A stretch of DNA of 64,000 nucleotides, from positions 1 through 64,000 of the forward strand of contig LT642147.1 of the NCBI GenBank assembly GCA_900128585.1, given 5' to 3'. A program made the translations under genes and the position numbers. The notes beneath the pieces were generated by a model, which saw only the letters and a list, made by a program, of their open reading frames with translations, was not told the origin of the DNA and ran no database searches. Position 1 is the stretch's first letter. Each line of letters opens with the position of its first letter. Origin of the DNA: Stramenopiles sp. TOSAG23-3. Lineage: Eukaryota. Of the stretch, positions 42,921-61,625 are shown piece after piece.

Positions 42921-43380
42921 TGTTGTGTGGTGTGGTGGTGATAAAAAAATAAAATATTATTATAATAATTTTTATTATTATTATTATTTTATTAAAAAAC
43001 ACAAAGTATCTTTTCAACCGATAGTATAAATTACGAAGATTGTACTTTTAAAAGAAACAAACAACAATATTGAATATCTTTTTACTATTTTCTCTTCTCT
43101 CAATGAATAAATAATAGTCATCTATGTGTGTGTACGTTGTACATTAAAAAGATACGGAAGAACTGTTCCATTGTTTCCTGGAGAAGGGCCAGGCGTATAC
43201 AACCTACCTACCGTACTACCCTCCCTGCCTACCCCCGTTACACGCGCCAACCACCGTTTGCTTTGCGTATCTTTCCTATACAATCGTCGAACCTTTTCTA
43301 GCCGATAGCGAACGCCAAGGGACGAGACCGCGGGCACGGGCGGGCGAGGGGGAAAGGGGGGGATAGTAGGACTAGGACAT

Positions 43381-46092
43381 ATGGAGGCCGAGCTTCAGGC
43401 GGCCGTGCTGGAGCACGCAAAGTACCTCGGGCTGGACCCCGCCGTCGACGGCAAGTACATGCACTTGGCGAAAGAGGCCCTGTTGGCCCAGGTCCCGGCA
43501 CCGTGGGTCCAGTACGAGAGCGAGGAAGGCATCCCGTACTACTGCAACGAGGAAACCGGCGAATCCAGCTGGGAAAACCCCATGGACAACGTCTACTTTG
43601 AAAAGATAAGGGCGCTCAAGGAGCGGGACGGCGGGGTGCAGCCCCCGGCGAGCGCCCCCGTGGCCCCGCCCGCCGTGCCGCCCCCGGCGCTCCCGCTGCC
43701 GCCGCTGTCGCCGCCCGCGGCCGCCGCCCCCGACCCCGCGCCGGGGACGGGCAAAGCCGAGCCCAAGGCAGAGCCCGAAGGCGAGGACGACATAGAAAGT
43801 ATAGTGGGCAAGCGAGTCCTTGGGGGGGGCGTGGTCGAGTACAAAGTTCACTGGAGAGGGACCGGCCCGTCCGAGGACGAGTGGTTCGGCCGGGACGACC
43901 TGTTCGCGGAGTTCCCCCAGCACGTCCGCGATTACGAGGCCGCCCGCGACGCGCACGGGGCCTCGAAGCGCCGCCCCCCTCCCCCCCTCGCTGCCGCGTC
44001 CCCCGCCGGCAGCAACGCCGCCGCCGCCGCCGCCATGGAGTCCATGGAGCGCACGATCGACGAGCTGGAGGAGGAGGTGGTGCAGGCGAGGAAGCAGCTC
44101 ATGCGCGCCAAGGAAGAAGGGGACCGGGCGGCGCGCGGGAAGCGCCGGGCCGAGAGGGAGCTGAAGGACGTCTCGGACTCCTTGGAACGGCTGCGGGAAG
44201 AACTGGAGAGGGAGGCGGAAGAGAACGACGCCATGCGCTCGAACGTTCGCCGGATGGAGGCAGAGATCAAGCGGCACGAGCGGGCCTCGCAGGTGGCCTC
44301 GGGCGCCGGGCCGGGGCCCGCGGAGGCCGCGAACGCGGAGGAGGTGCTGGCCCTGCAGAAAGAGCTGAGCGGGGCACGGGGCGAGGTCAGCACGCTGAAA
44401 GCCGAGGGCGCCGCGGCCCGCAGGGAGGCCAGGGCGCTCCAAGAGGAGGCCTCGGCCCTGTCGGAGTCCCTCGAAAAGCGCAAGGCCGAGCTCGAGCAAG
44501 AGATGCACGCGTCCGCGGAGCTGCGGAAACGGCTCTTGGCCGCGGAGGCCACGGTCCCGGACGAGGGCAAGGGCCCGGACCCGGAGGCCGCGAAGGAGCT
44601 GGAAGAGCTTCGGGGCCGGTGCGAAGCGTCGGAGAACAGGATCAGCGACCTGAAGGGCGAGCGGCGCGCGCAGAAGGAGCAGCTTGGGGTGATGCGCAGC
44701 CTCCTTCTGCAAGCGCAGTCCGAGCTGAAGACCCGGGCCGCGGAGTCGGCCGAGCTCCAGGCGACGATCGAGACCGTCCGGGCGTCCGCCGCGGCCAACC
44801 TGGACCAGGCGGAGAAGGAGAAGGCCGCGGAGATCGAGCGGGTGGTGCAGGGCCGCCTCGCCGCGGCGCGGAGCGTCGCCGACGCGGAGATCGCCGCCGT
44901 CCGGGGACAGCTCGAAGCGGCCGAGGCGAAGCTGGTCGAGGAAATGACGAAGCGGCGGCGGCTGCACAACCGGGTCATGGAGCTGCAGGGCAACATACGC
45001 GTGTACTGCCGGGCCCGCCCGGTCAGCGCGACCGAGGAGGGGTTCGGGGACGAGAAGGCGGCCGTCGTGGTGCGCATGCCCGCGAACGACGACGGGTCCG
45101 TCCTGGTCCGCGCGTCCCTGGAGCAGCGAGAAATACGGTCCGACTTTGACTTTGACGCGGGGTTCTGGACCGGGTCGACGCAGGCGGGCGTGTTCGAACG
45201 GGTCCACCCGTTTGTGGTGAGCGCGATGGACGGGTACAACTGCTGCATATTCGCCTACGGCCAGACGGGGAGCGGGAAGACGTACACCATGGAGGGCCGG
45301 GCGGCCGACCGGGGCGTGAACGTGCGCGCGCTGGACGCCATGTTCGAGGAGGCCGGGAGCCGGGCGAAGAATTTGGGAATGCAGTACACGTTTGCGGTGA
45401 CCATGTGCGAAATATACCAGGAAGAGGTGTACGACCTTCTCCCGGAGACGAAGGTCGCCACGAGGACGAAGATCCAGCTTCGCCAAGGGAAGGGCGGGGC
45501 CGTGTACGCGGAGGGGCTGAACTCGGTCCCCGTCGCCACCACGGAAGACGTAGAACGCCTCGTCAAGCGCGGGCACAAGAACCGCTCCGTGGGGGCCCAC
45601 AACTTCAACGAGCACTCGTCCCGGTCCCACCTGGTGGTCGCCGTGGAGATACGGCGAGAAATCGTTCGGGACGACGGCCGAACGATGGTCCGGGTCTGCA
45701 CGCTCAACTTGGTCGATTTGGCGGGGAGCGAAAGGATCAGCAAGACCGACGCCAAGGGGGTGCGGCTGAAGGAGGCCCAGAGCATCAACAAAAGCCTGTC
45801 CGCGCTGGGCGACGTGATCGGGGCGCTGGGGGGCGCGAGCAAGCACGTCCCGTACCGGAACTCCAAGCTGACCTGGCTGCTGAGCGGGTCCCTCAGCGGC
45901 AACTCGAAAGTCCTGATGTTCGTGTGCATTTCGCCGACGAAAATGTGCGTGTCCGAGACCATGTGCTCGCTCAATTTTGCGCAGCGCTGCCGGTCGACCG
46001 AGCTCGGCCGGGCCAGCAAAGTTGGGGAGAGCTCGGGGGGGGGCGCGGGAGGCGCAAGGGGGCACCTGAGGCGCGGCAGCGGGAGGCGGTGA
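43381..46092 (+). CDS. Kinesin-14 (C-terminal motor) with N-terminal CEP164-like WW region and chromodomain
   Basis: Neck RRRLHNRVMELQGNIRVYCR; P-loop FAYGQTGSGKT; NEHSSRSH, LVDLAGSER and HVPYRNSKLT. WW domain PAPWVQY..YYCNEETGESSWENP. Chromo-like IESIVGKR..EYKVHWRG..DEW. Confidence 0.9.
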   Translation: MEAELQAAVLEHAKYLGLDPAVDGKYMHLAKEALLAQVPAPWVQYESEEGIPYYCNEETGESSWENPMDNVYFEKIRALKERDGGVQPPASAPVAPPAVPPPALPLPPLSPPAAAAPDPAPGTGKAEPKAEPEGEDDIESIVGKRVLGGGVVEYKVHWRGTGPSEDEWFGRDDLFAEFPQHVRDYEAARDAHGASKRRPPPPLAAASPAGSNAAAAAAMESMERTIDELEEEVVQARKQLMRAKEEGDRAARGKRRAERELKDVSDSLERLREELEREAEENDAMRSNVRRMEAEIKRHERASQVASGAGPGPAEAANAEEVLALQKELSGARGEVSTLKAEGAAARREARALQEEASALSESLEKRKAELEQEMHASAELRKRLLAAEATVPDEGKGPDPEAAKELEELRGRCEASENRISDLKGERRAQKEQLGVMRSLLLQAQSELKTRAAESAELQATIETVRASAAANLDQAEKEKAAEIERVVQGRLAAARSVADAEIAAVRGQLEAAEAKLVEEMTKRRRLHNRVMELQGNIRVYCRARPVSATEEGFGDEKAAVVVRMPANDDGSVLVRASLEQREIRSDFDFDAGFWTGSTQAGVFERVHPFVVSAMDGYNCCIFAYGQTGSGKTYTMEGRAADRGVNVRALDAMFEEAGSRAKNLGMQYTFAVTMCEIYQEEVYDLLPETKVATRTKIQLRQGKGGAVYAEGLNSVPVATTEDVERLVKRGHKNRSVGAHNFNEHSSRSHLVVAVEIRREIVRDDGRTMVRVCTLNLVDLAGSERISKTDAKGVRLKEAQSINKSLSALGDVIGALGGASKHVPYRNSKLTWLLSGSLSGNSKVLMFVCISPTKMCVSETMCSLNFAQRCRSTELGRASKVGESSGGGAGGARGHLRRGSGRR

Positions 46093-46730
46093 TGCGAGGG
46101 GGAGGGGGGAGGGAGGGGGCCAACGTAACGTATTAAAACAAAAAAATACATACGAAGTAAGGTAAGCGAATGTAACAACGTAATGCCTGCAATTTAGGTA
46201 CGTTATTTAAAATTTATCGTCTTCATGCACCGCGAATGTAAATCTGCTCCTTCGGTCCAGGAAAAAATAAAAATGAAATATATACTTTTGATACAAGAAA
46301 ATTGGCTGTTATTTAAGTAATTAAATTAATGTACTGCGAACTGAAATCTAGATTTAGACATTCTAGGTTTACATTCCTTCATGACTAATCGATATACCCT
46401 TGCCACTTAGTCTTGACTATCATTCTCAGATGAACTCCCTTCATAATCTGAACCAGTAGATGGATTAGCATTGTATACTTTTCGTATCCTCTTTATTCCC
46501 GTGTGGTGGGACCAAGTTATATAAGAAATACCAGTTTAATAAACACGACATGGAAAAAATTGAAGATCAAGATTTTTACAGGTACTCTTGTATTATAAAA
46601 TCTTAAAGTTTAATATCGTACGAAATAAGCCCTAAGTATATTTTAGTATGGAGGCGTTCTCGAGGTTTGGTTTGCCCGCACCGCCACGAAAAGGCTCCTC
46701 GTGCGCACGATACACGCCCGCCGCCCGGCC

Positions 46731-49700
46731 TTAAATCTGTTGGGTTTTTGGCTCGGGAGACGAGGGCAGCTGAAAGCTGGACGCCTTTGCCCCTGCGGAC
46801 GCTTTCACGGATTTCTTCTTCGTCTTCTTCTTCTGCCCGGCCGAGGACTTCTTCTGGCCCGCGCTTTTCGTCTTGGACTTCCTCGCCCCCTTCTTCTCCG
46901 GGCCCTTCTCCGCGTCTGGCCCGTCCCCGCCTTCCAGGTCCACCATGGCAATCTCTTTCTCCCCGTCGGATTTTTTGGCCGGCTTGGGCTTGCTGGCGAC
47001 CTTCTTCAACGCCAACTCCTTCGCCTCGATGCGGGCAAGCACCTCCGTCTGCTCCGTCTCCAGCTCCCCGATGCTCTCCTCGATGGAGTCCCCCTCGTCG
47101 CCTTCGTCCAGGGCCTTCTTCTTTTCCCGCAGCGCCTTCATTTCCGCGTCGATCTCCACCAAGCGCTCCACGTCCGGGTCGCTCGAGGCAAGCGGGCCCT
47201 TGTACACGGGGTCGTCGCCCTTCCTGCCCAGCATGAAGAACAACCCAAAGCACACCAGCCCGATCAAGATGACAATCGCGACGATGATCAGCCAGGTCAA
47301 GTCGAAGGCCCCGGTCCCGGCGGCGGCGGCGGCGTCGTCCGTGGCGGGCGACGGTTTGGGGGTGCACACGTCACCGGTATCGCAGTACGTGGCAACGCTG
47401 CCCATGGCGCTCCCGCAAAAGCACGCCTGCGAGGCTTCCTCGCCTTGGGTGCAGGGGCGGCGCTGCGGCACGGCTCCCCCGTTCGCGTCGTACTTGCACA
47501 CTTGCCCGGGTGCCAACAGGTCGGGGATGGCCGAGCTGGTGCCACACTTGCACGCCACGGAAACGATCACGTCTGCGGGGCAGTCCACAACGTTGGCAAG
47601 GCGAGCCACGGTGCTTTCGTCGCTGCTGGAAGTCCCAAAGCCCGGGACGAGGCACGTCTGCAGCGGCCCTTGGGCCACCTTGCACTTGAGACCCTGCTCG
47701 TTGCAGCAGGCGCACGGGAGCCCGGTCAACGCGTTGCCGTCGGTGGAGCACCGTCCCAGGGCCGTGTCTTTCAGGACCGTGTGCGCGCACACCTGCCCAC
47801 TGGCGATCATGGCACTCCCGCACCTGCAGGGGAGCGAGGCAACTGCAGACCCATCGCTGGAGCTGCATGGCGCGACTTCGGACGTGGCGCCGCCCGCGCA
47901 AGCCTGCCCTGCCTGGGCGATGGTGCATTGGGTGCCGTCCGTGTTGCAGCATGCGCACTCGGACGTTGTTACTGCTCCGTCGATGCACTTGGTAAGGGTG
48001 CCGTCGGTTTTGATGGAGTGGTAGCACACGCCGCCGGGCACAATCGTCTTTGCGCCGCACGTGCACGTGACTTTGGTAGCCGCCGTGCCGTCTTGGTTCG
48101 CGCAGTCCGTGAACGCGCTCACGGCCGCCGTTGACGCGCCCGTCAGGCACGTATCTGTCGTGGTGGCCAGTTTGCAGGCTCCCCCGTCGGTGCTGCAGCA
48201 GAAGCACTCTGCGGTCGGCCGGTTCCCGTCGGTGGTTGTGCACTTTGCAATCTTGTACGAGTCCTCGGCGTTTTTCAGGTTGCAAACGTCTCCGCTCACG
48301 GCGTTGGGCGCCGTGGGCACCCCGCACGTGCACGACTTCGTTGTGGCGCTGATGCCGTCCCTGGGGCTGCATGTGCTCAACAGGGACACGGCGCTGTTCA
48401 GGCACACCCTTCCCGATTCCGCTTGGTTGCACGCCTGCCAGGCGTTGCAGCACGCGCAAAACCCGGTGTTGACGCTGCCGTCGCTCTTCGCACACTTCGA
48501 CAGGACTTTCTTCGAGTACCGGTTGTGGATGCACAGATCCCCGCTCGCAATCGCCGGCGTTTTTCCGCCGCACTTGCAGGCTCGAGGGGCGGCGTGGTAC
48601 CCGTGCTGGAATCTTTCGTTGTTTTGCATGTCGATCTGAACGTCGTCGCAGTTTTGGACGTTGTCCACCCGGGAGGAACCGCCGACGAGCTTGTCCTCTC
48701 GGTCTGTGCCAGACTGACCAGTAAACCCGGTCCTCAACCCTGCATTTGCAGTATTGCACGCCCCGGTCGCTAACAATGCGTGCAACCGGAAAGTACTCCC
48801 TTCTGCGTTTATGTTTTGAACACAGTACGTTGTTCCATCGCGCAGCCCGTTGGGGATATTTGAAGATGCAAGGTGTGTATCAGCCTCGTTTCCGAGGGCG
48901 TAGGTCACATTTTGGCCATCGGAAAACCCGTGATTTTCGATGGTGAACGTGTCGCCGTTAAATGCTTTGAGAAAGTAGTACGTCAGCCCGCACGTCTGCC
49001 CGACCTTGGCGTAGTTGCACTGGCGAGGGTAGGTGCCTGCGACTGGGCAGCACGCTTGGGCCGTAGTGGCGACGATCCCCCCGCCCCCTGCGAATATGGT
49101 CATCGATTGCATCGCTTTCGTCTCGCACACCTCGCCCCTTCCCATCGGCGATCCCCTGGTAGTTGGCACGCCCGTGTTGAGGCAGTAGCACTCCGTGGCC
49201 GTCTGCCGGATGTTGTCCCCGGCGGTCTTGGGCGTGCTGGTTAGGAAACACTGCAAGCCCCCTTTCCATGCGTCAGTGGATGATATTGCAGTACTAGTGA
49301 ACAGCCCCCCAGCCGCGTTTGGCGAGGTAAGGGTGATTGGAGAGCCCGTGGAAGCAATAGCGTCTCGGTGCCAAAATGTCAATGTTCCTTTGGTCGGTGA
49401 AAGCTTTGCCTTGGCGTTGTTGTTCAAGACGAACGTGGACCCCGCCGACGTTGTGTACGCCAAGGTACCGGTGGGCGCCAAGGACTCCGTGACACTCATG
49501 TAAATGGGGTCTCCGTTAGCAATAGTAGTGTCTGTTGGAGTTCCCCTGGTTACCGTGACTGTAGTTGAACCACCAGTTGACGTAACTGTCATGATTTCGC
49601 TTTTGATTTTGATCAGTAAACGTAGTCCCAGTTCCCGAGAGCGTATTAGTAACGACTGTCGTCTTTGCAGTGGTGAGCAAAATAGGGTCGGTGTCGGCGT

Positions 49701-52700
49701 CAAGTATAGTTGCCGGAGAACTATGCCTCACAACCGTGACCTCGTCTGGGTCGCCACTATTATCAACTGAAGCAACTCTCATGATTTCGCCGTCGATTTG
49801 GATTACATCTCCTGCGCTGAACCTAGTTCCTTCGCCATCAGCGACATTAAACGTAGTCCCACTGGAGAGCGTACTCGAAACAACAGAAGCGAGCGCCACG
49901 GTAGCGATAGCCTCGTCTATCCTGGTCACCGCTAAGTTGTACGTCACTGCCGTGTTCGCTCGCGCGTTTGGTTGAAAGATATCGGGGGACGATTGCGTGT
50001 CCGTGCACACAATTGTCACTTCAGTGTTTGCGGCGATGGCGGTCATGGTGTTGCCGTTAGCATCCGTGCGCCCCGGAATTACCGTTAAAACTTTTCCTGT
50101 TGATCCTGAAACTGCAAATGTTGTTGAAGTCCCAAATACGGTCCCTCCTGCCGAGCTTGATTGACAGTACTGGGCGAGTGTGGTACTCGCATGGTCATCA
50201 CGAAACACTTGCGTGGCAAAGGTCGCCACAATAGAATCTTCGCCCACGGTGAATGGCCTTGCCGTTGTAAACGTAAGGGTAAGCTGCGTGGGGCGCAAGT
50301 GCTCCTTCAGGCTGCTCGTGCCCAGTTGCACCGTCGGTACCCCTGTCGTTTGGTATGCGAACGTTCCCATCGGGGAAAACACGGTGGCCTTGCTGGCAGT
50401 ATCCTGGTAATATGGTTTGCCAATGTTGGCAGTAGTCCCTGCGCGCGCACGGTACGTCACGACTGTGTTTGCCGCGGGGTTGGCGTTGTACATGGTAGCA
50501 GCTTCGCAAGCGATGGTGACGGTTGAATGTTTTGCGATTGCGCCGGCGGTGACTACTTCAAGCACCGATCCTTTCTGGTAGGCGTAAATGGGGTCTCCGG
50601 CAGCAATAGCGTCACTCGCGGTACTCCCCCTGGTTACCATTACTTGGTCTGCACTAGTAGAACTAGTACCATCAACCGCGTCAGTCGCTTGAACGACCGT
50701 CATGATTTCGCCGCGAATTTGGATGCGCATACCGGGTTGAAAAAGTGTTGCTTTGCCATTAGGAATGGAAAACGTAATATCAGTGGCAGCTGGGGTAAAA
50801 GCAGTTGTGACTGTGGTTAGCTGGGCCTGAAAGTAAATGGGGTCTCCGTTAGCAATAGTAGAGTCTTTTGGAGTTCCCCTGGTTACCGTGACTGTAGTTG
50901 AACCACCAGTTGACGTAACTGTCATGATTTCGCTTTTGATTTTGATACAGTAAACGAAGTCCCAGCTCCGGAGAGCGCATTAGTAACGACTGTCGTCTTT
51001 GCAGTGGTGAGGTAAATAGGGTCGGTGGCACCGGCGGCAAAACTTCCTGGCGTTGAATGCCGAGCTACCGCGACGGTTGTCACGGTACCATCTGACGTAA
51101 CTCTCATGAATTCGGTGCCGATTTTGATAACCCTACCTTCTGGGAAAAGCGCCACATCACCATTAGCAACATAGATCGAGGTCCCTGTATTACCACTGTC
51201 TGCGAAGTTATTACTGGCGGCCCCACCCCCATCCGCATTAGTTGTGGTTAGGGTAAAAAGCGCCACGGTAGCGATAGCCTCGTCTATCCGGTCCAACTTC
51301 ATCCCGCTCGACGTAAAGATGGACCCCGACGCAAAATTGGTGGTTCCACCAATTTTGCTGAGCGTGCTGCACCTGGTCGTTTCGACCTCCTCGTTCGCAA
51401 AGATCCCGTGGCTAAACTCGAACCGTATCCTGTCGTCCACGGCAAGTGCCGCCGGCGCAGTGAATTGCATCGTCAGCCTCGTCGGTTGCATTCTTTCGCC
51501 CGTCTTATCGATGCTTACGGTGGATAGTGCGGTGGACGTGAAGCCAGGCGTGGAAGGAGCGGACACGGCATAGTCAGCCCCTGCGTTGTTATCGGTATCG
51601 ATTCCAATCCCGAAAGTGAGCGAATTGTTAGCAGCAGGGTTCTTGGTGAATATGCCGTAGTGCTGGACCGTATCGCCGGAACTATGTGCGGCGAAGGCTC
51701 CAACTCCAAATAAGCTCGTCCTTGAAGCAACGGTCAATGTGTTGCCAGCCACGGTTGTGACCCGCATCACTTCATTGTTAATTCTGATGTATTTATTCAC
51801 AAGGCCGCTTCCCCCAAGGATACTAGCATCCGCTACTGGCACGGACACGTCCGTGGCGGCGTTGTTGTTGGCCACATTGGCCGTCAGGGTGGTAGTGGCG
51901 CTCCGGCGAAGATCGACGCAACGTATGAGGACTGTTGCGCCCTTGGCAATATTGTTCACCTTTGGCGTCACGGTCAAAACATTCCCGTTTCCGTTCACAC
52001 TGAAAATGGACGTGGCAGCCATCGTACTTCCTGCAGCCATGCTCTGTCTGCACATCGTGGAAATGTCGACAGTGGCGGTGGTATCGAATATTTTGCGAGA
52101 GAATGTGATGATTATGTCATGATTGGTGTGTGTTATTGCTTGAGGGGCTTTAAAGGTCACTTGCAAGTCCATCGGTGTCATTTCTTCCCTAGAATCATCA
52201 ATGGTAAGCTCGGACGCCGACAACGTCGTGTATGCTGGCATCGTCACGTCCCCAATTGCAGTCCCAGTTCCACCCGAAACAGTATCACCTGCTGCTCTTA
52301 ATTGGTATTTCACCAGGGTATTTGCCGCGGCATTCGGTTGGAAAATATTGCTTGACGCTCTGGTGTCCGTGCAAACAATCGTTACGTCAGAGTTCTTAGG
52401 AATGTCATCGGGAGTGGTCTTCGGAGTTATTGTCAATATTTGTCCCACACCAAAATTAGTAACCCCATTCCCAGTCACTTCAAACGTTGACGCGGCGTCA
52501 ATGGTGACCGTGCCCCCTGTCGCGGTTCTTATTGTGCTGCTTGCTTTACAGTACGTGTTGAGAACAGTATCGGCGTGGTCGAGGGAAAAAATTTTTGTGT
52601 TAAATTTTAGAACAATAGTGTGCGGGGCCGATTCATCGATAAGGGCCGGCGCGGTGAACGCAAGGGTCAGGGTTGTGGGGTTGAACCCCTCCCTCAATTC

Positions 52701-55700
52701 ATTCACTGTGACGGTCGACACCCGCGACACGTCGTACGTAGAAGGGTAGTTGGTGCTCGACGGGAGCCCGAGCGTGTAAGTCGGCAGCTTGGCAAAGTAC
52801 TGGTCTTTCGTGCCCATGTTGGCTTTGTCGAACTGGATGTTTGCACCACCAGTGTGGTACTTGCTAAGTTTGAACGTGTCAGCAGTTATCTCTTTCAAGT
52901 AGTACTTGCCAAGGTGTTCCAGCCCGCCGACTGGAGCACGGGACAGGGTGGTACCCGATGCCGACGTTTGCGTTTGCCCATCGTTTCCAGCATAGTATTG
53001 GACCACATCATTATTGTTATTGTTTGTCCAGCCATGACTTGCGCTGTAAAATATAACGTCGTTTGTCGGTATCACGGACGCCCCGACAGGCGGCGCGGTC
53101 GTTGGAAAACCCTCCGATGCGAGGTACGTCACGAGGCCCGCATTCGATTTCCCTGGTACAGTAGATGTAGAATCAGCAATGGTGTAAATTTTGTTTTCAA
53201 TTCGAACCTTTGAGCCGGCGCCGCCAATCTGGGAAGCGTCGGCAACTCTGAAAGCTTTGGTTGTTGCAGTCGGTGGAGGGACGACGACGGTGGTCCCTTT
53301 TCTGGGCAAAAACGTGACCCTCGAACCTAGAGCATGGTTGATTATCTCCTGCGTTCTCCCCGCAGTAATTCCATTTCTCACACACGTCAGGGCATTTGCA
53401 CTCACTGAAGTAACTAATATGATCTCAGATCCAATTTGAATGTATGCGTTCTTAGTGCTACTTGTAAAACCCAAAGCAGCCGCACTTTGGACATTGATGA
53501 CTCCATTTGAAGTACCCGACCCGCTGTTCGACCCGCCGCTGGCAGTTGTTACAGTCCCCACAATGGCAGGCTTCAAAGCCAATTCGGCCGGACGAAAATG
53601 CGTCGTCGGTGTCGTGTCGGTGCACACCATTTGAACCTTGGACCCTGCTGTCGACTGCTGGGAAGGGGTTGTAGTTAGCACAACGTTGGTAGAGACGACT
53701 GCTTTTACTTTCATGGCTGCCATGCTGTCGCACGTTTGAATCGGGGCAACACCGTTCCTATCTACGCCTAGGTTGTCGCACGTTTGCGTGTTCGACGCGA
53801 CAGTGCAGCTTGCTGCGGAGATTGGATTGCTCAACGGACTCCCCGCGGCATCGAACTGGTTTTGGCAGCACGCGCAATTCGCGGGGGTGGCAGAAGAAGA
53901 GGTAGTAGAACGGCTCTGGAGCCCCTTTCCGTCGCACTTTTCAAGTATATCGTTGTTGTAGCACACCTCGCCGGGCTTCAGGTCGGTCCCGATATTGGTT
54001 CGTGTCGTCGTACGCCCCGGGCACGTGCACTGCACGGCAGTGGTCGAGGTCCCCGTTATGGACGAGCAGGTCGTGAAATCGGCCACGTTGTACGCTGGCG
54101 ACACAAAATTGTCGCACGTCTGTGCGGTGGGCGAGCTTACGGCGAGCTTGCAGTTTCTCGGGTGGCCGCTGGTGGCCGTGGTCTTCTGGCAGCACGCGCA
54201 CGTTCCGCTGGTAACCTTCGCCCCGTCCCCGGCGCACTTGGCTATGAGCCCAGTCGCACCGCATACTTGGCCGGGCTGGATAGTGACACTTGTGGAGGTG
54301 CCTTGTACGGTGCACGTGCACGCGACTTCCGTCGTTTTCGTACCAATCGTGTTGACGCAGGCGGCCAGGTTCGCGGCCGTCCCAGGGTTCGTGCCCGTGC
54401 CGGTCGTTATGCACGTCTGGCCCGATTGTGCTATCGTGCAGAATGGAGAGTCGTAGTAGTTCGTGTCGGTAGAGCAGCACGCACACTTCGACGAAACCAC
54501 TTGCCCGCTCACGAACGTCCCGGCGTTGCACTTTTGCAGTCTCGTCGGCGTGGCTCCCACGGAGGCCGTGTGGCACACTTGGCCGGGAAGGAGCGTCGTG
54601 TCGCCGCACTTGCACTCGACCGGCGTCTCCTTCGACCCATCGACGGCCTCGCAAGTGGTGAACGCGTCCTTCTTTCCCTTGGTGGTGCACGTATCGTCCT
54701 TCGTCGCGGGCTGGCAGGCCGTCTTGTCCTTGTTGCAGCACGCGCAGTCCGTGTTCCACCGGCGTCCCGCGCCGTCCCACGAAGCCGGAGGGCCGGCCGT
54801 GTACCCGCAAGGGGGAAGCTTGGTGAGGTCGCCGTTGTCCAAGTTGCACACGGACCCCGAGGACACCTCCACGGTCCCGCACTGGCAATCTTTGGTCGAT
54901 TCTCTCTGTCCGTTGGTTGACTCGCACGCCGCGTAGTCCGACACCTGGCCGTTCAGGCACACCTGGCTGTTGCTCGTGAGTTCGCAGACCTGTCCGCTCG
55001 CATCGCAGCAGCTGCAGCCTTTCCCCTCGGGGCCACGCTCTCCGTTTCCGGCGCACTTGGCTATGCTGAAGACTTGCTGCGCGGGGGTCAAATTGCAGAC
55101 TTGGCCCGCGTTGATCTGCTTGGGCCCGCACTGGCAGGCGCTGGTCTCCTTCTGTACGCCGGCGGTATCGGCGCACGCGTTCACCGATTGGCTCGACGGG
55201 GTATTCGCCGGGCTATCGGTGCTGGCACTGACCACGCACGTCCTCCCTGCCAGAACGTCCGTGCACACCCCCGCGGTGCTGCTTGAAAGGTCCGAACAGC
55301 ACGCGCAAAACTGCGTTGCAACCGACCCTGCGGTGCATCGCGGAAGGTTCGTGTTGGAGCGACGACGATGGTTGCAGACCTCGCCCGGACCGATTTCAAG
55401 GGTTCCGCACAAGCACGATTTCGTGGTCCGTTGCTGCCCGTTTTCGCTGCCGCACGTAGCAATGGTGGACACTGGCGTTGATGACGTCGTGATGTCCGAT
55501 GCGAGGGTGTTGACGCCAGTTACGTAGCAGATTTGCCCCACCTGCGCTACGGCGCACTGGTTGGCCTGGGAGGCAGTGCTGGGCAGGCAGCAGGCGCACC
55601 TTTCCGACGTCCTGGTACCGTCGGGGCTCCCGCGGACTCCGTTCGCATTCTTGCACTCCGGGTATACCGTTCCCGATATGCACACGTCGCCCGGGGATAT

Positions 55701-58700
55701 CCCGGTCGCACCGCACGAGCAGGCAACTGCGGCCTTGTGAGGGGTGGAAGCGCACGCCGCGTACGGGGCTGTCTGGCCATTGTTTCGGCACGTCATCAGG
55801 TTTTGGGCAAAGTTGCAGGCACCTGTGGAAGCGGCGCAAACGCCGTTGACAAGCGCAGAATCACAAGCGCAGCACGCACAAGTCCCCTGGACTTGTTTCC
55901 CACCGCCGTTACCGGGCATGTTCCCGCAAACGAACTGCACCTCGTTGTTTATGCATACCCTCCCAGACGTCATTTCCACGCCGTTGCATGTGCACGCGCG
56001 TAGCTGCACAGCAGTCAAAGAGCACGAAGCAGAGGCTAAGGTCGGAGTATTGTGCTGGGTCCCCGATTCTGAGGTAAGACACGTTTCGCCCGGTTTCAGC
56101 GCGCGGCAGAGCCCGTTGTTTCGAGTTTGGCAGCACGCACACCTGTGGGTGACTTTCTTGCCCCCCTCGACACACTTTTCAAGCTTCTGCGTGTCGCCAT
56201 CTACAGTCGCGCACACGCTTCCGGGGTTGATGATCGAAATCCCGCATTGGCAGGCTGTGAAAGTGAGGACATTGTACGGTTAGTGTGTGGAGTGTTGGGA
56301 GGCATTTGGGCAATGATAAAAAAAATACTTACCCTCCGTGACCTTTCTACCAGGTAGCCAATTGGCTGAATTGGAATCCAACCCAGTGATTTCTATCCGA
56401 TCGCGTGGATTTGTTGTACCAGATGGGCATGCGGCAACTGTTTTTTTAATCAACACAGTACCAGATGCTTCGGCGCTGGTACAGACATCCCCGGGCACGG
56501 CGATCCTGCACAACAGTCTGTCTCTTCCGCCTGAGACTGCAGCGTTTAGACTCGTCGCCAAAATGCCAGGTAGCTCGCAGCAAGCGCAAGCCTTGTTTTC
56601 CACCTTCTTCCCCTTCCCCCACCCCGGGTAGTGCTGGCAGATGTCGATGATTTTGTTCGGGTCGTTGTCGTGGTTGCACACTTGCCCCGCTTTGATCAAT
56701 GTGTTCCCGCAATTGCAATCCACCGCCGCCCGGCCCGTTCCGTCCGTGACAACGCACGTTGTCACTGCTGCTACCGCCGGGGTCCCGGACGCGCTAAACG
56801 TACACGTCTTTGTGCTGTCGGCGTACGAGCAGGTCGTCCCGCCGTCCCTGCAGCACGCGCACCCTTCGGGCGGCGCCTGGGCCCCCGTGAGCCACAAGTA
56901 CGGGTGGGCCCCGGCGGTGGCTGAGGATGTTGCTCGACAGTCCGTCAGACTCCCCTTGTTGCTCGTGACGTCCACAAGCGTGCTCCCTGCCGTCGCTTGG
57001 TTGTAGCATCGCCCTTTGCATTGATCAAGGACCAAGTACCCCAATTGGTTGTTGTAGTTGCACACTTGGCCCGGGACCAGGGCAACGTCTCCGCACAAAC
57101 ACTGCACTTTGGTGGCCGCGGTACCCACCATGTTAAGGCACTGGGCCAACGGCGTTACGACCCCGTCGCGGCACATCTGAAGGTTGGTTGCGAGCGTGCA
57201 CGCGCCCGTGCCGGCCTTGCAGCAGCTGCATTGTTCGGTCGAGCTCATAACGGTTGGTTGGCCGTTTGGGGCCTGCTTGAATCCCCTGTACCCTTGGCCA
57301 AAGCAGTGCTCCACTGTTTGCGATGCGGTCATCGAGTTGCAGTACTCCCCGGGCTGAAGCGGTACCCCGCCGCAAAGGCAGGCGATCATGGAGGGCGACG
57401 CCCCGTTGGTTATGCCGCACACTCCGTAATCGGCCACGGCGCCGCTACTTGCGCAAGTTTGTCCCTTAGAAGCCACTTTGCAGGTCCTAGTGGCGGCGTT
57501 GCAGCACGCCTGGTGTGGTGTTGGGTCGGTGAAGTGTTAGGCGAAGCGAACGAAAAATGGGGTGAAGAAGAGAGAAGTTGAAGAAAACTTACGCATTTGC
57601 TTGTCGTCTGCAGGCCGGCGCCGTAGCATATGTTTATCGGTTTGTTCGGCGTCAGGCCGTCGTAGCAGACTTCGCCGGCAGATATTGTTGTCGCCGTGCC
57701 GCAGAGGCACGGGACGGCGGTCGCCTTTGTCCCGTCGGAGGCCTCGCACGCTGCAAGAGGGACGGCTGTCCCCTCCACGTTGCACGTGTCTCCCGCGTTC
57801 GCGACCATGCACACGCCGGATACGGAGCAGCACGCGCACTTGGCGGAGACTGCCCCTGTGGTGCTGACCGCGCACTGTTGGATGGCCTTGTCCGGCCAGA
57901 CGGAGTGGTAGCATATTTTCCCTGCTTTCATCGGCAAAGTGCCGCACTTGCAGTCGACGGTCGAAATCTTCGTCCCAGTCGTGTCCTGGCAGACTCCGTA
58001 AGTCGCCTTGGAACCGCTGCTTAGGCATGTATCGTCGTTGGAGGCTACCGCGCAGGCCGTCCCTTGAGGGTTGCAACATGCACAGCGGGCACTAGTCTTT
58101 GCCCCGCCCCCTTGGCACTCCGACAGGACCTTGTTCGGATTGTTGCCGTTGTCGCAGATGTCCCCGGTGTTTATCGCCAGCTGCCCGCACATGCAATCCC
58201 TGGTGGTCTTGGAAGTGCCGGAAGAGCTCGCGCAGTTCCCGTACGCCTGCAGTTTCGAATTGCTATTCAGCATTGGCAAACAGGTCTGGGCGTCGGTACT
58301 AGAACTGGAACTAGTGGAAATCTCGCACGGCTGCCCCCCTGTCCACGTGTTTCCACCACTCTCGCATTCTGCGCGGGTCGTCTTGGATGGGTCCGAGCAC
58401 GCGGGGGCGCAGCAAGCGCATCTGGCAGTGATTCGTTTCCCCCCTCCCGCGCACTTTGACATTTTCTTCGGGGCCACCTCGGTAGGTGGTCCGGAGTTAT
58501 AGTTTTCCACGTAGCAGACATCGTCAACGGAGATGCTCACGGGAGATCCCGAGGCAGGGTTTGCCGCCGCGCACTGGCACTCGATCGTAGACATGGGGCC
58601 CGAGACCTGGGGGCAGGCCACAGTCTTGATCCGTTTGTAGTTGTACGCGTACACGTTGGTCCCCGGGGAGGCCGTTTCACAGGTCTCCCCGGCCGCGGTG

Positions 58701-59540
58701 GTGGCACAGTCGTTGCCATCACTAAGGCAACAGGCGCAACGGCTCGACTCTGCCAGTCCGTAACGGGTGCACTTGGCAATTCTGCTGTTTGGCGAGTAGT
58801 CGTGGTTGCAGACTTCGCCCGGTGCGATTTCGGTGGTTCCACACAGGCACGAAACGGTGGTCTGCGCAGAAGCCATGGTGTTGACGCAGGCAGTCAGCGC
58901 AGTGACGGTGCCATCGTTACTGCAAACCTGATTTCGCTTTGCAGGCGTGCAGGATCCGCTTCCAGAGGACGGGCAGCACTACAAGTCGAGGAAGGGAGAC
59001 GATCGATCGTGTTAGTCGCGGAGCAGAGGGGGAGAGAAAGACAACGTTGATCGGGAGTACTTACGGTACAGTCCTGGGAGGCTTTTTTGCCCCCGCCCGC
59101 GCACGGCTTGAGGACTATATCGCTCAGCTGGCAGACCTCGCCAATGCCAACGATTGAATCGGCGCACCGGCCTAAGTAGAAGAAAGGGTAATTTTGTTGT
59201 CGCGAAGGGACGATGAAAATTGTTAGCACAAGGGCAAAAGGTTGGTCGGCAAAAGAAGGGTGCGAGGGGCGGGCGGCTGGCTCTACTTACAGGGCTGCGA
59301 AGCGGCGCGCGTGCCGTCCACGTTCGTGCAGGCGCTGGGGTCCAAGCACATGGTCGCGGATGCAACGGCAAGGGCCCGTTCTTTATGTTCCATTTTTGCC
59401 AGAAAATCCACCCCACGGAGTTGCCGGAAACTGTGGGGGTACGCTGGCGACCTTTGCAGGCCGTGGAGCTGCTGCGCCTTCTGCGCGCTAGCGCACACGA
59501 GAAGGGCGCACGCCAGCAGCGTGCGCAGCGTTTGGGACAT
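46731..59540 (-). CDS. Giant Cys-rich type-I membrane (surface) protein, ~4,150 codons; exons 59540-59291, 59171-59065, 58978-57593, 57509-56333, 56254-46731 (frame breaks at ~50947 and ~49614)
   Basis: Signal peptide at 59540. Four GTAAGT..CTAAC..YAG introns join the ORFs in frame. About 22 repeats with CxCG..G.VC..CxCC..C..TC. C-terminal TM WLIIVAIVILIGLVCFGLFFML and a charged cytoplasmic tail. Confidence 0.82.
49500..49693. repeat. Internal ~195-bp direct repeat, copy B (copy A at 50833-51027)
   Basis: Near-identical nucleotide sequence, e.g. ttggagttcccctggttaccgtgactgtagttgaaccaccagttgacgtaactgtcatgatttcgcttttgattttgat in both copies. Confidence 0.95.
50833..51027. repeat. Internal ~195-bp direct repeat, copy A
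   Basis: Matches 49500-49693, offset by 1333 nt. Confidence 0.95.
56255..56332 (-). other. Intron 4 of the giant surface-protein gene (78 nt)
   Basis: GTAAGT..CACTAAC..CACAG; the splice gives KVTEACQCG. Confidence 0.9.
57510..57592 (-). other. Intron 3 of the giant surface-protein gene (83 nt)
   Basis: GTAAGT..CCTAAC..CCAG; the splice restores SKCACCN. Confidence 0.9.
58979..59064 (-). other. Intron 2 of the giant surface-protein gene (86 nt)
   Basis: GTAAGT..GACTAAC..TGTAG; the splice restores DCTCCP. Confidence 0.9.
59172..59290 (-). other. Intron 1 of the giant surface-protein gene (119 nt)
   Basis: GTAAGT..GCTAAC..TTAG; the splice gives QPCRCAD. Confidence 0.88.
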
Positions 59541-61281
59541 TGGTCTTTGTCTTGCTTTGTTGTTCTTTCTTTTGCAGTATTGTTTGAATAGTGCAAATTA
59601 TGCAAATTTAGTGTGCAGTCGGCAGGATTTGCTCTTTAAAATAACGCGCCGTTTCATTCACGAAAGTAACAGCGTGGGAACGCAGCAACATCATGGTTGC
59701 GGAAGCTGCCCAAAAAGCTCGGCTTACGTGCAGCATATCATCGGTACCGGGCACTTTGTTGTTGTTCTTCTTCTTTGTGAGCAGCTGCTGGTGCCGGCAC
59801 AATAAAAAAATAATTAAACCACCACCATCCTGTTGTCCTGCTATCGGTAGTTTACTCGTTGGTTCTACTTCCATATCTATAGCTCCTGTTCTGTGGGTGT
59901 TGTTTGGGTGGTGAGTGGGCGGCGTGAGCTCGAGAAAGTTTCCTGTTACAGGCGCATAGGCAGAACATTAACGTGTAAAAAGATTATCCAAAACCGACGG
60001 ACCGCAACAACAAAAAGATCGAAATTTTGGATTCGAGAACCATTATTTTGTACCTTAACATGGAGAAGCAACCGGGAGAGCTCTTCTGAGAATATAGTAA
60101 TTGTAAATAAACTAGACGAGCGACGACACCAATGTATCATTAAGGATAATTGTTCAAATAGGAGAGAATCACTGGACGAACCATTTCGAACGGATTAAAA
60201 AAAACTCAGCAGAGACTCCTCTCCCTCCCCTTTCCTATTTTCTTGCAGTTTTAGTTTTCTTCAATGGTATGGAAGCAGCAGCCGGGACAACTCCTCGCTT
60301 GGGTTCCGAGAGATTTGACATATTTCCCAACACTGTTCCGATGTATATAACCAACTGGTTCGTTTGGGTTCGAAGGTTCAAAAGTTTGGTTTTGCAGAAG
60401 TATACACAGTTGCATAGTTGTCTTGCGATGCCCCCCTATGGAGCAAAAATCGACGAAAATTTTGCCAGTCATTTGTTTTTTTTTTGTGGAGAGGAAACGC
60501 ACGCAAAAGAAAGGATGATTCTGCTTCGAGCTTCGAGGAACAATAATAAGTAGGAGGAACACTGAACAAAACGCTTGCCGGTAAACTTACACGCCACTTC
60601 TTTGATTCTTTTGATGCATAAGAAGAAATACCGTCCCCTCACCATTAAATTGTTTTTCTGATTAGTCTAACATTAACATGGAAGGGGGAATCGTATATAG
60701 TTTATTTACTCCGGAGACCACGCACAGCAATGGTGTAATTTACAAAGACATAACAGCTGCGCTAGAGTCCATATCACAATAGTATACATTGAACAGTATG
60801 GGATATATAGATAGGTTACAGAATGGCACTTTTACCTGCCAAAAAGTGGTGTTATTTTTTAAATAAATAAAAAACATTGAAGTAAGAAATAATTGTATAC
60901 TCGATGACATAATCGTCCTATAATATAATTAAATTTGAATTATTCTATAGTCTGTCTACCTTTTATGAAACAAAGCAGTACACAAGTTGAATAATTATTC
61001 AGACAAACAACATAGAGGAAGGAGGGCAGAGAGAGAGAGAGCAGGATACCATTTGTTTTTAGAGGTCCTTAATATAAATTAATATGTCACTATAATATGT
61101 ACGACGTAAGGGAAATAGGTCTTCTCTAATACCCTACTTTCTGTAATCCTCACCTTCACCTATCTAAAGACAATGACATTATGTATTAATAAAGAAAGAG
61201 AAAACCTTAAAATCAAAATAAAGAAGAAGAAGAATTGTACAATGGTGTGATACCGTATCTCTCAACAACAAAAAAATCCGC

Positions 61282-61368
61282 GAAGAAGAAGAAGAAGAAG
61301 AAGAAAGAAGAAGAAGAAAGAAGAAGAAGAAGAAAGAAGAAGAAAGAAGAAGAAGAAAGAAAGAAGAA
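61282..61368. repeat. (GAA/GAAA)n microsatellite
   Basis: Purine-only tract upstream of the GST gene. Confidence 0.95.
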
Positions 61369-61625
61369 GTTTAAGTTTAAGTTTATATAGTATTAATAAT
61401 TAAAATCAGGAAGTGGTGTGTGTGCAACCTTCATGCAATGTTCTTCTCTATTTTTTGGGTACCCATATATAATTTTGTTCGATAGGATACTACTCGGCAG
61501 CCCTATCCGTGTTCGTCTGACATCATCATCGGCGATTTTGTTTGTTGTGGGGGCTTCGTATTTTCTTTCCACGATTGATTAAAAAAGAAAAGAACGAGGG
61601 CAGAACTATTCGATACAAGCTGGCC

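Follow-up and report, generated by a model that had tools for sequence, protein, structure and literature searches.

Small beta-barrels displayed on the outside of phage virions and of bacterial cells are the closest described systems to the element reported here, a Cys-poor block in the middle of a giant predicted surface protein of the uncultured marine protist Stramenopiles sp. TOSAG23-3. The gene lies on the minus strand of a stretch of 64,000 nucleotides (GenBank assembly GCA_900128585.1, contig LT642147.1, positions 1 to 64,000), and the whole of this analyzed stretch is called the window hereafter. Among phages, a six-stranded barrel is found in the baseplate hub of JBD30 (domain VI of gp53), in the tail tip of Chi (8vjh), and in the sheath inserts and tail fibers of cyanophages; the PHROG families phrog_11439, 1101, 7578, 4406, 9851, 8469 and 38058 contain it. 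The role described for the JBD30 barrel is to stabilize the baseplate architecture (PMC11445458). A second type, the E1 FCCH-like barrel, decorates the tail tubes of siphophages, where PF16190 is fused to PF08813 (PMC13576161). In bacteria, giant surface proteins and Tad-pilus (TadG-like) proteins carry the module discussed below, there partly labeled PF25274 or PF19944, inside very long extracellular multi-domain chains.

The central block of the protist protein contains at least seven copies of this module, which we term module A, implying that a eukaryote uses a surface module of prokaryotes and viruses. Module A shares its motif with the phage barrels, the profile matches are reciprocal, the model yields the same small barrel, and both are used in tandem, multi-copy arrangements. 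Unlike the phage barrels, however, module A sits in a eukaryotic, intron-bearing, membrane-anchored protein, between two Cys-rich arrays. The motif of the C-terminal strand also differs between module A here and the phage barrels (G-D-P-I-Y instead of H-x-x-G-x-x-V), and the copies in the window are too divergent to be detected by whole-protein PHROG or tblastn searches. The likeness to the bacterial proteins lies in the position of module A within a very long extracellular chain, whereas their partner domains (RTX, cadherin, FG-GAP, PA14 and invasin D3) have no counterpart among the Pfam domains of the window protein. The locus is real, and would represent a variant of modular surface adhesins. 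No paper on phage-type modules in protist surface proteins appeared among the results of the literature searches.

Module A and its relatives

A first-pass annotation, made from the letters alone, had described a Cys-poor block rich in Thr, Ala and Gly between two Cys-rich arrays, and this description holds. All the peptides that it quoted are present on the minus strand in three adjoining frames (50922-56279, 49516-50979 and 46731-49727), and the block has only 20 Cys in 1661 residues, against 6-14 per 100 residues in the flanking arrays, with 16.5% T, 11.3% A, 8.7% G and 8.4% S. At least three kinds of predicted beta module, termed A, B and S, make up the block (Table 1). A strict pattern retrieves seven copies of module A, and an eighth is degenerate, in line with the seven to eight copies proposed before; their extent had to be revised, as an additional 'T-x-F-x-V-A-D/N ... 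F-x-x-G' strand moves the start of the module about 20 residues toward the N-terminus. The copies are mutually 14-45% identical. The core motif [IV]-x-[IV]-x-x-E-x-[MIL]-x-V ... [TV]-V-x-R is kept in seven of the eight, copy 2 being devoid of the Glu, and its E, V and R are nearly invariant (>=90%) across an alignment of 50 rows.

A profile built only from the eight copies of the window was searched against 1.84 billion representative proteins. It matched 462 of them at E<=0.001, 64 at <=1e-10 and one at <=1e-30. In the 150 matches listed, 603 stretches of module A were counted, with a median of three and up to 12 per protein. Family libraries were checked for 107 of these 150, comprising all 87 with a length of <=900 aa and 20 of the 63 above that length. 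A PHROG match at E<=1e-5 was obtained for 76 of the 87 short proteins, repeatedly on one short stretch of tail protein, tail fiber, baseplate wedge or virion structural profiles; copy A3 alone matches the same short stretch of the tail fiber profile phrog_11439. By comparison, only 13 of the 87 had a Pfam match, namely MJ0548_C (5), DUF6406 (3), Tad (3) and RTX (2), with single matches to N_methyl, Invasin_D3, Beta_helix and Kelch among the short proteins. Phage-fiber markers were recognized in three of the 20 long proteins (Peptidase_S74 twice, DUF4815 once), bacterial surface types in seven (RTX and/or cadherin 3, FG-GAP 2, Tad 2), and domains of the Tc-toxin type in one, while nothing was recognized in nine; MJ0548_C appeared in two of the 20, besides the five short relatives. 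One bacterial relative that bears copies of module A is a Tc-toxin-A-like protein of 2404 aa (P0037), with ABC_toxin_N, Neuraminidase-like and VRP1 domains.

In the opposite direction, a hidden Markov model (HMM) was built only from 42 stretches outside the window. It recovers seven of the eight window copies with independent E values of 4.6e-13 to 2.5e-6, whereas the degenerate copy scores only E 2.6. No other match was found in the 1189 six-frame stretches of the window, and none in 20 shuffled sets. Local BLAST of the block against the 150 listed proteins returned only module-sized matches. The copies in the window do not reach the gathering cut-offs of PF25274 (MJ0548_C) or PF19944 (DUF6406): the best Pfam score is that of copy A7 with DUF6406 (E 0.13, 13 bits against a cut-off of 26.9), and MJ0548_C gives no match. 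On the strength of the profile matches, module A truly belongs, as a divergent member, to a family of 'display' domains that has no name as yet and is characterized by a six-stranded beta-barrel.

The first-pass annotation had likened module A to structural modules of aquatic tailed phages. The likeness stands, as it extends to tail sheath, fiber, hub and capsid proteins and to marine cyanophages; the module occurs in bacterial surface proteins as well. Within cyanophages, the window-only profile matches the tail sheath of P-RSM6 twice, and the 2150-aa tail fiber protein and the sheath stabilizer of S-CAM9, with E values from 9e-9 to 1.5e-5. The P-RSM6 sheath is gp18-like (HQ634193.1; L001, 5674-8472) and has its two module A copies near the N-terminus, which would place the module as a decoration on the outside of the sheath. 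The copy in the S-CAM9 fiber (KU686205.1, 17779-24231; L011, 3780-10232) is matched at E 9e-9. Against the PDB, the window-only profile gave only noise (MtrB, E 2.1), and an enlarged profile matched solved phage proteins only: the Chi tail tip 8vjh (4e-6), the JBD30 hub 8rk3_o (1e-3) and the VP1 capsid 9in6 (1.5e-3). Taken over prokaryotes and viruses, the family is located in phage tail sheaths, tail fibers, baseplate hubs and capsids, and in giant bacterial adhesins and Tad-pilus proteins. Of the relatives in which other domains can be recognized, no fewer carry bacterial surface or pilus types (Tad, RTX, cadherin, FG-GAP, N-methyl pilin, invasin) than carry phage markers. Therefore, 'phage-type' should read 'phage and bacterial surface-display type', and the family, as judged from these sequence matches, is not phage-specific but spans phage virion and bacterial surface proteins.

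The predicted structure is in keeping with this assignment. An AF2 model of copy A3, computed with the 50-row alignment, is a small barrel with pLDDT 78.5, for which DSSP assigns five strands and a short one. An exhaustive VIA search placed residues 490-564 of 8rk3_o at the top (Z 6.4, rmsd 3.8, 72 aligned residues, 25% identity), which correspond to domain VI of the JBD30 baseplate hub, and nine of the top ten entries are phage virion proteins. Module A is thus modeled as a small closed beta-barrel like JBD30 hub domain VI, with a modest Z for a common fold. A single-sequence AF2 prediction of A1-A2-B1 reached a pLDDT of 35.5 and was discarded as unusable.

The likeness of module A might instead reflect an old, universal small barrel, or convergence, with no transfer into eukaryotes at all. 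Such a reading would be in accordance with the commonness of the fold, since almost the same scores are reached by riboflavin synthase, EF-Tu domain 2-like and ATPase N-terminal barrels, with the poor resolution of the module tree, and with the fact that two top matches come from a cryptophyte transcriptome. However, the profile matches reach E 1e-9 to 1e-31 and carry the common motif I-x-I-x-x-E-x-M-x-V-T ... T-V-x-R-G, and Pfam holds no eukaryotic family for the module. Because these matches are at the level of sequence and the motif is shared, convergence or sharing of a fold alone is insufficient, and we regard this explanation as quite improbable. For the structural and homology part of our interpretation, our confidence is high.

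Modules B and S

Two copies of a second module, H-G-W..V-Q-Y..G-L..Y-Y-L..T-F-K-L in its first copy, had been proposed by the first-pass annotation, and both exist. MAFFT aligns them with 33% identity. With BLAST, an alignment is obtained in a shifted register only (E 0.001), suggesting that two further partial units lie beside the copies. A comparison of module B with module A by hhalign indicated that the two are unrelated.

For the former assignment of module B as a phage module of the 'E1 FCCH-like' kind, the only support comes from a language-model look-up in the ESM Atlas. There, B2 and B1 fall with the same unnamed Uroviricota clusters at 0.95 and 0.94, respectively, and with a viral E1_FCCH cluster at 0.91 and 0.88, in a look-up that involves neither alignment nor E-value; the recognition for B1 is below the tool's own 2300 mark. 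The pattern H-G-[FW]..G..V.Y...G-L..G..Y.V...T-F.L is also common to module B and the E1 FCCH-like barrels. In contrast, no alignment-based match links the two. Neither copy matches PF16190 (E1_FCCH) at E<=10; there is no PHROG or PDB match and no homologue among 1119 word-index candidates; the module was not found in the 150 module A proteins or in two cyanophage genomes; and BLAST against the tail fiber of S-CAM9 was not significant. A profile of a look-alike module from 38 orthologues of cyanophage tail fibers did not recognize module B either. PDB profile matches of module B to designed 'Pizza' propellers were rejected, as they are sums over low-complexity repeats in which every stretch has E>80. 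We treat as a lead the possibility that module B is an FCCH-like barrel, similar to those that decorate the tail tubes of phages. The 2150-aa fiber protein of S-CAM9 has a sub-threshold E1_FCCH match of its own (E 3.6e-4), and an 'E-N-H-E-L..G-E-S-I-R-V...L-P-D-G-I..Y-Y-A-V' module in this protein resembles B by eye, not statistically.

Module S was absent from the first-pass annotation. It is a unit of about 130 aa with two conserved Cys, present in three full, two partial and two half copies, and searches of Pfam, PHROGs, the PDB and 206 phage or bacterial proteins revealed no relative. Larger units of the block are duplicated, too: segment C1423-1782 aligns with D16-460 at E 4e-28.

Gene structure and integrity of the locus

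The protein is composed, from N- to C-terminus, of a putative signal peptide, a Cys-rich array, the Cys-poor block, a second Cys-rich array, a putative transmembrane (TM) helix and a putative cytoplasmic tail. It is spread over five stop-to-stop frames of the minus strand that encode one kind of protein, at 57410-58978, 56280-57536, 50922-56279, 49516-50979 and 46731-49727. The first three are connected via two short GTAAGT...CAG introns. The start of the first exon, near 59540, is signal-peptide-like: a Met and a basic residue precede a hydrophobic stretch and small residues. With this start, the C-terminal helix and the charged tail, the translations fit on inspection a type-I single-pass membrane protein of about 4,200 residues, the type that had been suggested before.

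Table 1. Features of the surface-protein gene, in window coordinates
Feature	Positions	Strand	Remarks
Whole gene	46734..59540	(-)	~12.8 kb; about 4,170 codons as assembled (sum of exons)
First exon	59283..59540	(-)	Signal-peptide-like N-terminus, then first Cys-rich unit; judged by inspection
Intron	57510..57592	(-)	83 nt, GTAAGT...CAG; '..SKC' joined to 'ACCNA..'
Intron	56255..56332	(-)	78 nt, GTAAGT...CAG; removes in-frame stop between frames 56280-57536 and 50922-56279
N-terminal Cys-rich array	53724..58975	(-)	~80-100-aa units with nine Cys (C-x-C-G...G-x-V-C...C...C-x-C-C...C...C...C)
Cys-poor central block	48740..53723	(-)	1661 aa in the assembly, which lacks a further 28 codons
Module A copy 1	53307..53507	(-)	External-only HMM i-E 2.2e-10; phrog_11439 E 0.037
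Module A copy 2	53064..53261	(-)	Degenerate, candidate only; aligns with the other copies; external HMM i-E 2.6
Module A copy 3	51657..51854	(-)	Most canonical, the folded one; external HMM 4.6e-13; phrog_11439 tail fiber E 2.8e-5
Module A copy 4	51006..51185	(-)	External HMM 2.5e-6
Module A copy 5	50827..50946	(-)	External HMM 5.1e-9, profile positions 21-60; first strand lost to assembly gap
Module A copy 6	50578..50784	(-)	External HMM 1.3e-6
Module A copy 7	49672..49860	(-)	External HMM 1.9e-11; phrog_4406 E 0.028
Module A copy 8	49494..49613	(-)	External HMM 5.9e-9, profile positions 22-61; first strand lost to assembly gap
Module B copy 1	52857..53066	(-)	Followed by a partial unit, ~52764-52862
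Module B copy 2	48777..48956	(-)	Compact partial unit before it, ~48939-49049
Module S copy 1	52284..52736	(-)	~130-150 aa, beta-rich, two conserved Cys; P-T-x-L-T-L-x-F-T-A-P ... V-T-I-V-C-T-D
Module S further copies	51870-52232; 51237-51548 (partial); 49879-50367; 49170-49475 (partial)	(-)	From alignments
Module S half copies	53532-53723; 50365-50577	(-)	From alignments
C-terminal Cys-rich array	47370..48740	(-)	Nine-Cys units as in the N-terminal array
Transmembrane helix	47229..47300	(-)	24 hydrophobic residues, then G-R-K; by inspection
Cytoplasmic tail	46734..47228	(-)	165 aa, Lys/Glu-rich, charged
Assembly gap 1	50946..50947	.	40 letters missing, present in two RNA contigs (runs X3, X4); 2 stray bases + 40 = 42 = 14 codons
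Assembly gap 2	49613..49614	.	41 letters missing, present in DNA unitig (run X1); 1 + 41 = 42 = 14 codons

Two near-identical junctions, the assembly gaps of Table 1, throw the three frames of the block out of phase with one another; the first-pass annotation did not mention them. Both junctions coincide with the borders of direct repeats of 114 nt and 127 nt, and the module A copy that follows each break has lost its first strand. For comparison, contigs of one DNA run (X1) and of three RNA-library runs were aligned with positions 46500-59200. Both apparent frameshifts are gaps in the assembly, and the frame is restored by 40-41 extra letters in the reads. With gap 1 filled, frame 50922-56279 continues into 49516-50979; the 40 letters of run X3, translated by hand, contain no stop in the upstream frame and yield VPAAQKALFKADVL, in keeping with the missing 'F..G..' first strand. 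Tiny introns of 22/23 nt (GT..AG), the sole splice solution at the breaks, were rejected: they would remove the conserved I-K-I-K strand, the introns here have 78-83 nt, and the reads display the 40-41 missing letters. A pseudogene was likewise rejected because the reads restore the frame. As a practical warning, 'frameshifts' of this sort are assembly gaps at repeat borders and not signs of pseudogenization.

Contig placements that appeared to go back or to skip 1333 nt were considered as variation in the copy number of a 458-codon unit, and this reading was dropped. Since the 79 nt past both junctions are identical, the contigs have no unique placement and say nothing on copy number. A 6626-nt joint in the read data was too weak and was not used. 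Indels in the related RNA contigs amount to net multiples of three.

The contiguity of the locus bears on the possibility of an artefact, either a chimeric misassembly or phage or bacterial DNA contaminating the single-cell assembly. Two Logan unitigs of run X1 match with zero mismatches, one of 3,162 nt (46500-49564), covering B2, the C-terminal array and the TM helix, and one of 10,051 nt (51260-59200), covering the N-terminal array and the modules A1-A3, B1, S1 and S2; thus, the block is joined without a break to the Cys-rich array on either side. Parts of the block are also matched, with roughly 92-99% identity, by contigs that other studies obtained from poly(A) RNA libraries (X2, 49892-50171 and 50226-50584; X3, 50194-50566 and 52890-53153; X4, 48614-49272), and two of the RNA-library contigs, such as the one of X4, bridge module B2 and Cys-rich sequence. 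With the gaps filled, all parts share a single reading frame, and no phage match resembles the linkers or module S with its Cys pair. These observations oppose an artefact, although two local assembly errors do lie inside the block, and run X1 may be the window's own source and hence not independent. A chimera with viral DNA, the outcome that would have undone the former proposal, is not borne out, given the continuous unitigs, the introns and the bridging RNA contigs, and we consider an artefact of any kind exceedingly improbable. Because of the GT-AG introns, the kinesin neighbor and the continuity of the unitigs across block and arrays, this is a genuine eukaryotic nuclear gene of a marine protist.

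The nine-Cys repeat of the two arrays comprises about 18 or more units, most of the ectodomain, and has no Pfam match in any frame tested; the cytoplasmic tail has no Pfam match either. At 56255-56416 (-), a single RNA-library contig from a related strain lacks 160 nt and uses the same acceptor as the 78-nt intron, a weak observation. The 5' boundary given for that intron is provisional, and the end of the exon before it may be intronic, or lacking in relatives. The adjoining plus-strand gene (43309-46092) encodes a kinesin (PF00225, E 1e-102) with a C-terminal motor, a WW domain (E 3.6e-9), a chromo domain (E 1.5e-6) and a long coiled-coil between, an unusual combination. In an AT-rich intergenic stretch at 61180-61400, a purine/pyrimidine-skewed tract of low complexity encodes poly-Lys/Glu/Arg or poly-Ser/Phe/Leu in several frames.

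Origin and possible role of the block

Module A most likely entered the eukaryotic lineage by horizontal transfer from bacteria or phages. This origin is suggested by the distribution of the family, of which prokaryotes and phages have many members, whereas the searches retrieved no whole-protein relative from a eukaryote. Tandem duplication of units of several modules (A-A-S-S-A) would then have multiplied it within the gene. A capture from a phage, as formerly proposed, would be one form of such a transfer; the module tree points to no donor. In this tree (50 rows, 65 columns kept), 24 of the 47 inner branches are open, the copies of the window are scattered (5 changes), and the only supported clade with window copies is that of A5 to A8 (98/90). 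The sources of the 30 top matches are mostly metagenome contigs; two belong to a transcriptome set of Rhodomonas salina, one is an archaeal metagenome-assembled genome, and one lies on a 4.4-Mb contig. The two R. salina proteins, P0004 (753 aa) and P0009 (1016 aa), are among the ten best matches, with 8 and 10 module stretches, respectively, and no other domain.

Several results weigh against the interpretation of the block as transferred display barrels on an expressed surface protein. The 42 external stretches had been picked with a profile derived from the window, so that the recovery test is not fully independent. Pfam and PHROG scans of the whole frames gave no match, and two segments of the block had none by tblastn in 50,697 phage records, implying that the copies in the window are far from any known phage sequence. 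With regard to the fold, the VIA Z values of 5-6.4 are within the range that the tool calls common for small barrels, and Foldseek gave no match at E<=0.001 in the PDB or BFVD (best values 0.062 and 0.0073, respectively). The module tree, apart from naming no donor, does not demonstrate a single origin. A word-index search with a 444-aa unit returned no full-length eukaryotic relative among 8000 candidates of 244-777 aa, and the R. salina proteins could be either a second eukaryotic case or contaminants of the culture. The RNA-library contigs are consistent with expression, for which they are no proof, as such libraries can hold DNA.

Nevertheless, the explanation that we favor as a whole, with somewhat better than even confidence, is a type-I surface protein whose transferred display barrels form part of an extended adhesive block. 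The block would be an array of 'beads on a string', in which small barrels and sandwiches are held away from the membrane on the disulfide-rich units, and the Thr/Ser-rich linkers are probably O-glycosylated. Decoration domains on virions and adhesins are thought to make weak multivalent contacts with surfaces. By analogy, the barrels may make weak multivalent contacts with polysaccharide or cell surfaces, such as those of prey bacteria, particles or a substrate. For adhesion as the function, taken by itself, our support is tentative and falls short of even confidence.

The main rival, which we consider rather unlikely and yet only slightly less likely than adhesion, is that the block is mainly a passive, heavily glycosylated spacer, a mucin-like glycocalyx or stalk, in which the barrels provide stiffness and length and bind nothing specific. 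The abundance of Thr, and of T+A+G+S together (45%), agrees with a spacer, and the high divergence among the copies of module A would suit a scaffold. Moreover, the equivalent barrel of JBD30 is said to stabilize the baseplate architecture and not to bind a receptor (PMC11445458). The occurrence of the module A family in receptor-facing tail fibers and in adhesins of the RTX, cadherin and invasin types argues against a merely passive role.

A more specific form of the adhesive reading is that a bacterivorous marine protist has domesticated surface-recognition barrels of phages and bacteria (A and B) and, having multiplied them, carries them on a giant membrane stalk as a multivalent adhesin for recognition or capture of prey. 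This is a speculative proposal, to which we assign little probability. Markedly less probable still is the alternative of the first-pass annotation, in which the block would serve at the surface of the protist as a decoy or receptor for viruses; only the affinity of module A, and possibly of module B, to phage virions would recommend it. The modules are decoration or insertion domains of virions and not known ligands of other viruses, phages are not known to infect protists, and no giant-virus relative stood out in BFVD.

The gene provides the first documented eukaryotic setting for an unnamed and very widespread domain, which is represented by 462 representative clusters and covered by Pfam in fragments. 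It also illustrates that giant protist surface proteins can combine display modules of prokaryotes and viruses with lineage-specific Cys-rich and two-Cys modules. If the prey-capture proposal is true, the protist would be reusing the very parts by which phages and bacteria touch bacterial envelopes, and if the modules bind bacterial surfaces, they would offer a concrete handle on the recognition of prey by uncultured grazers.

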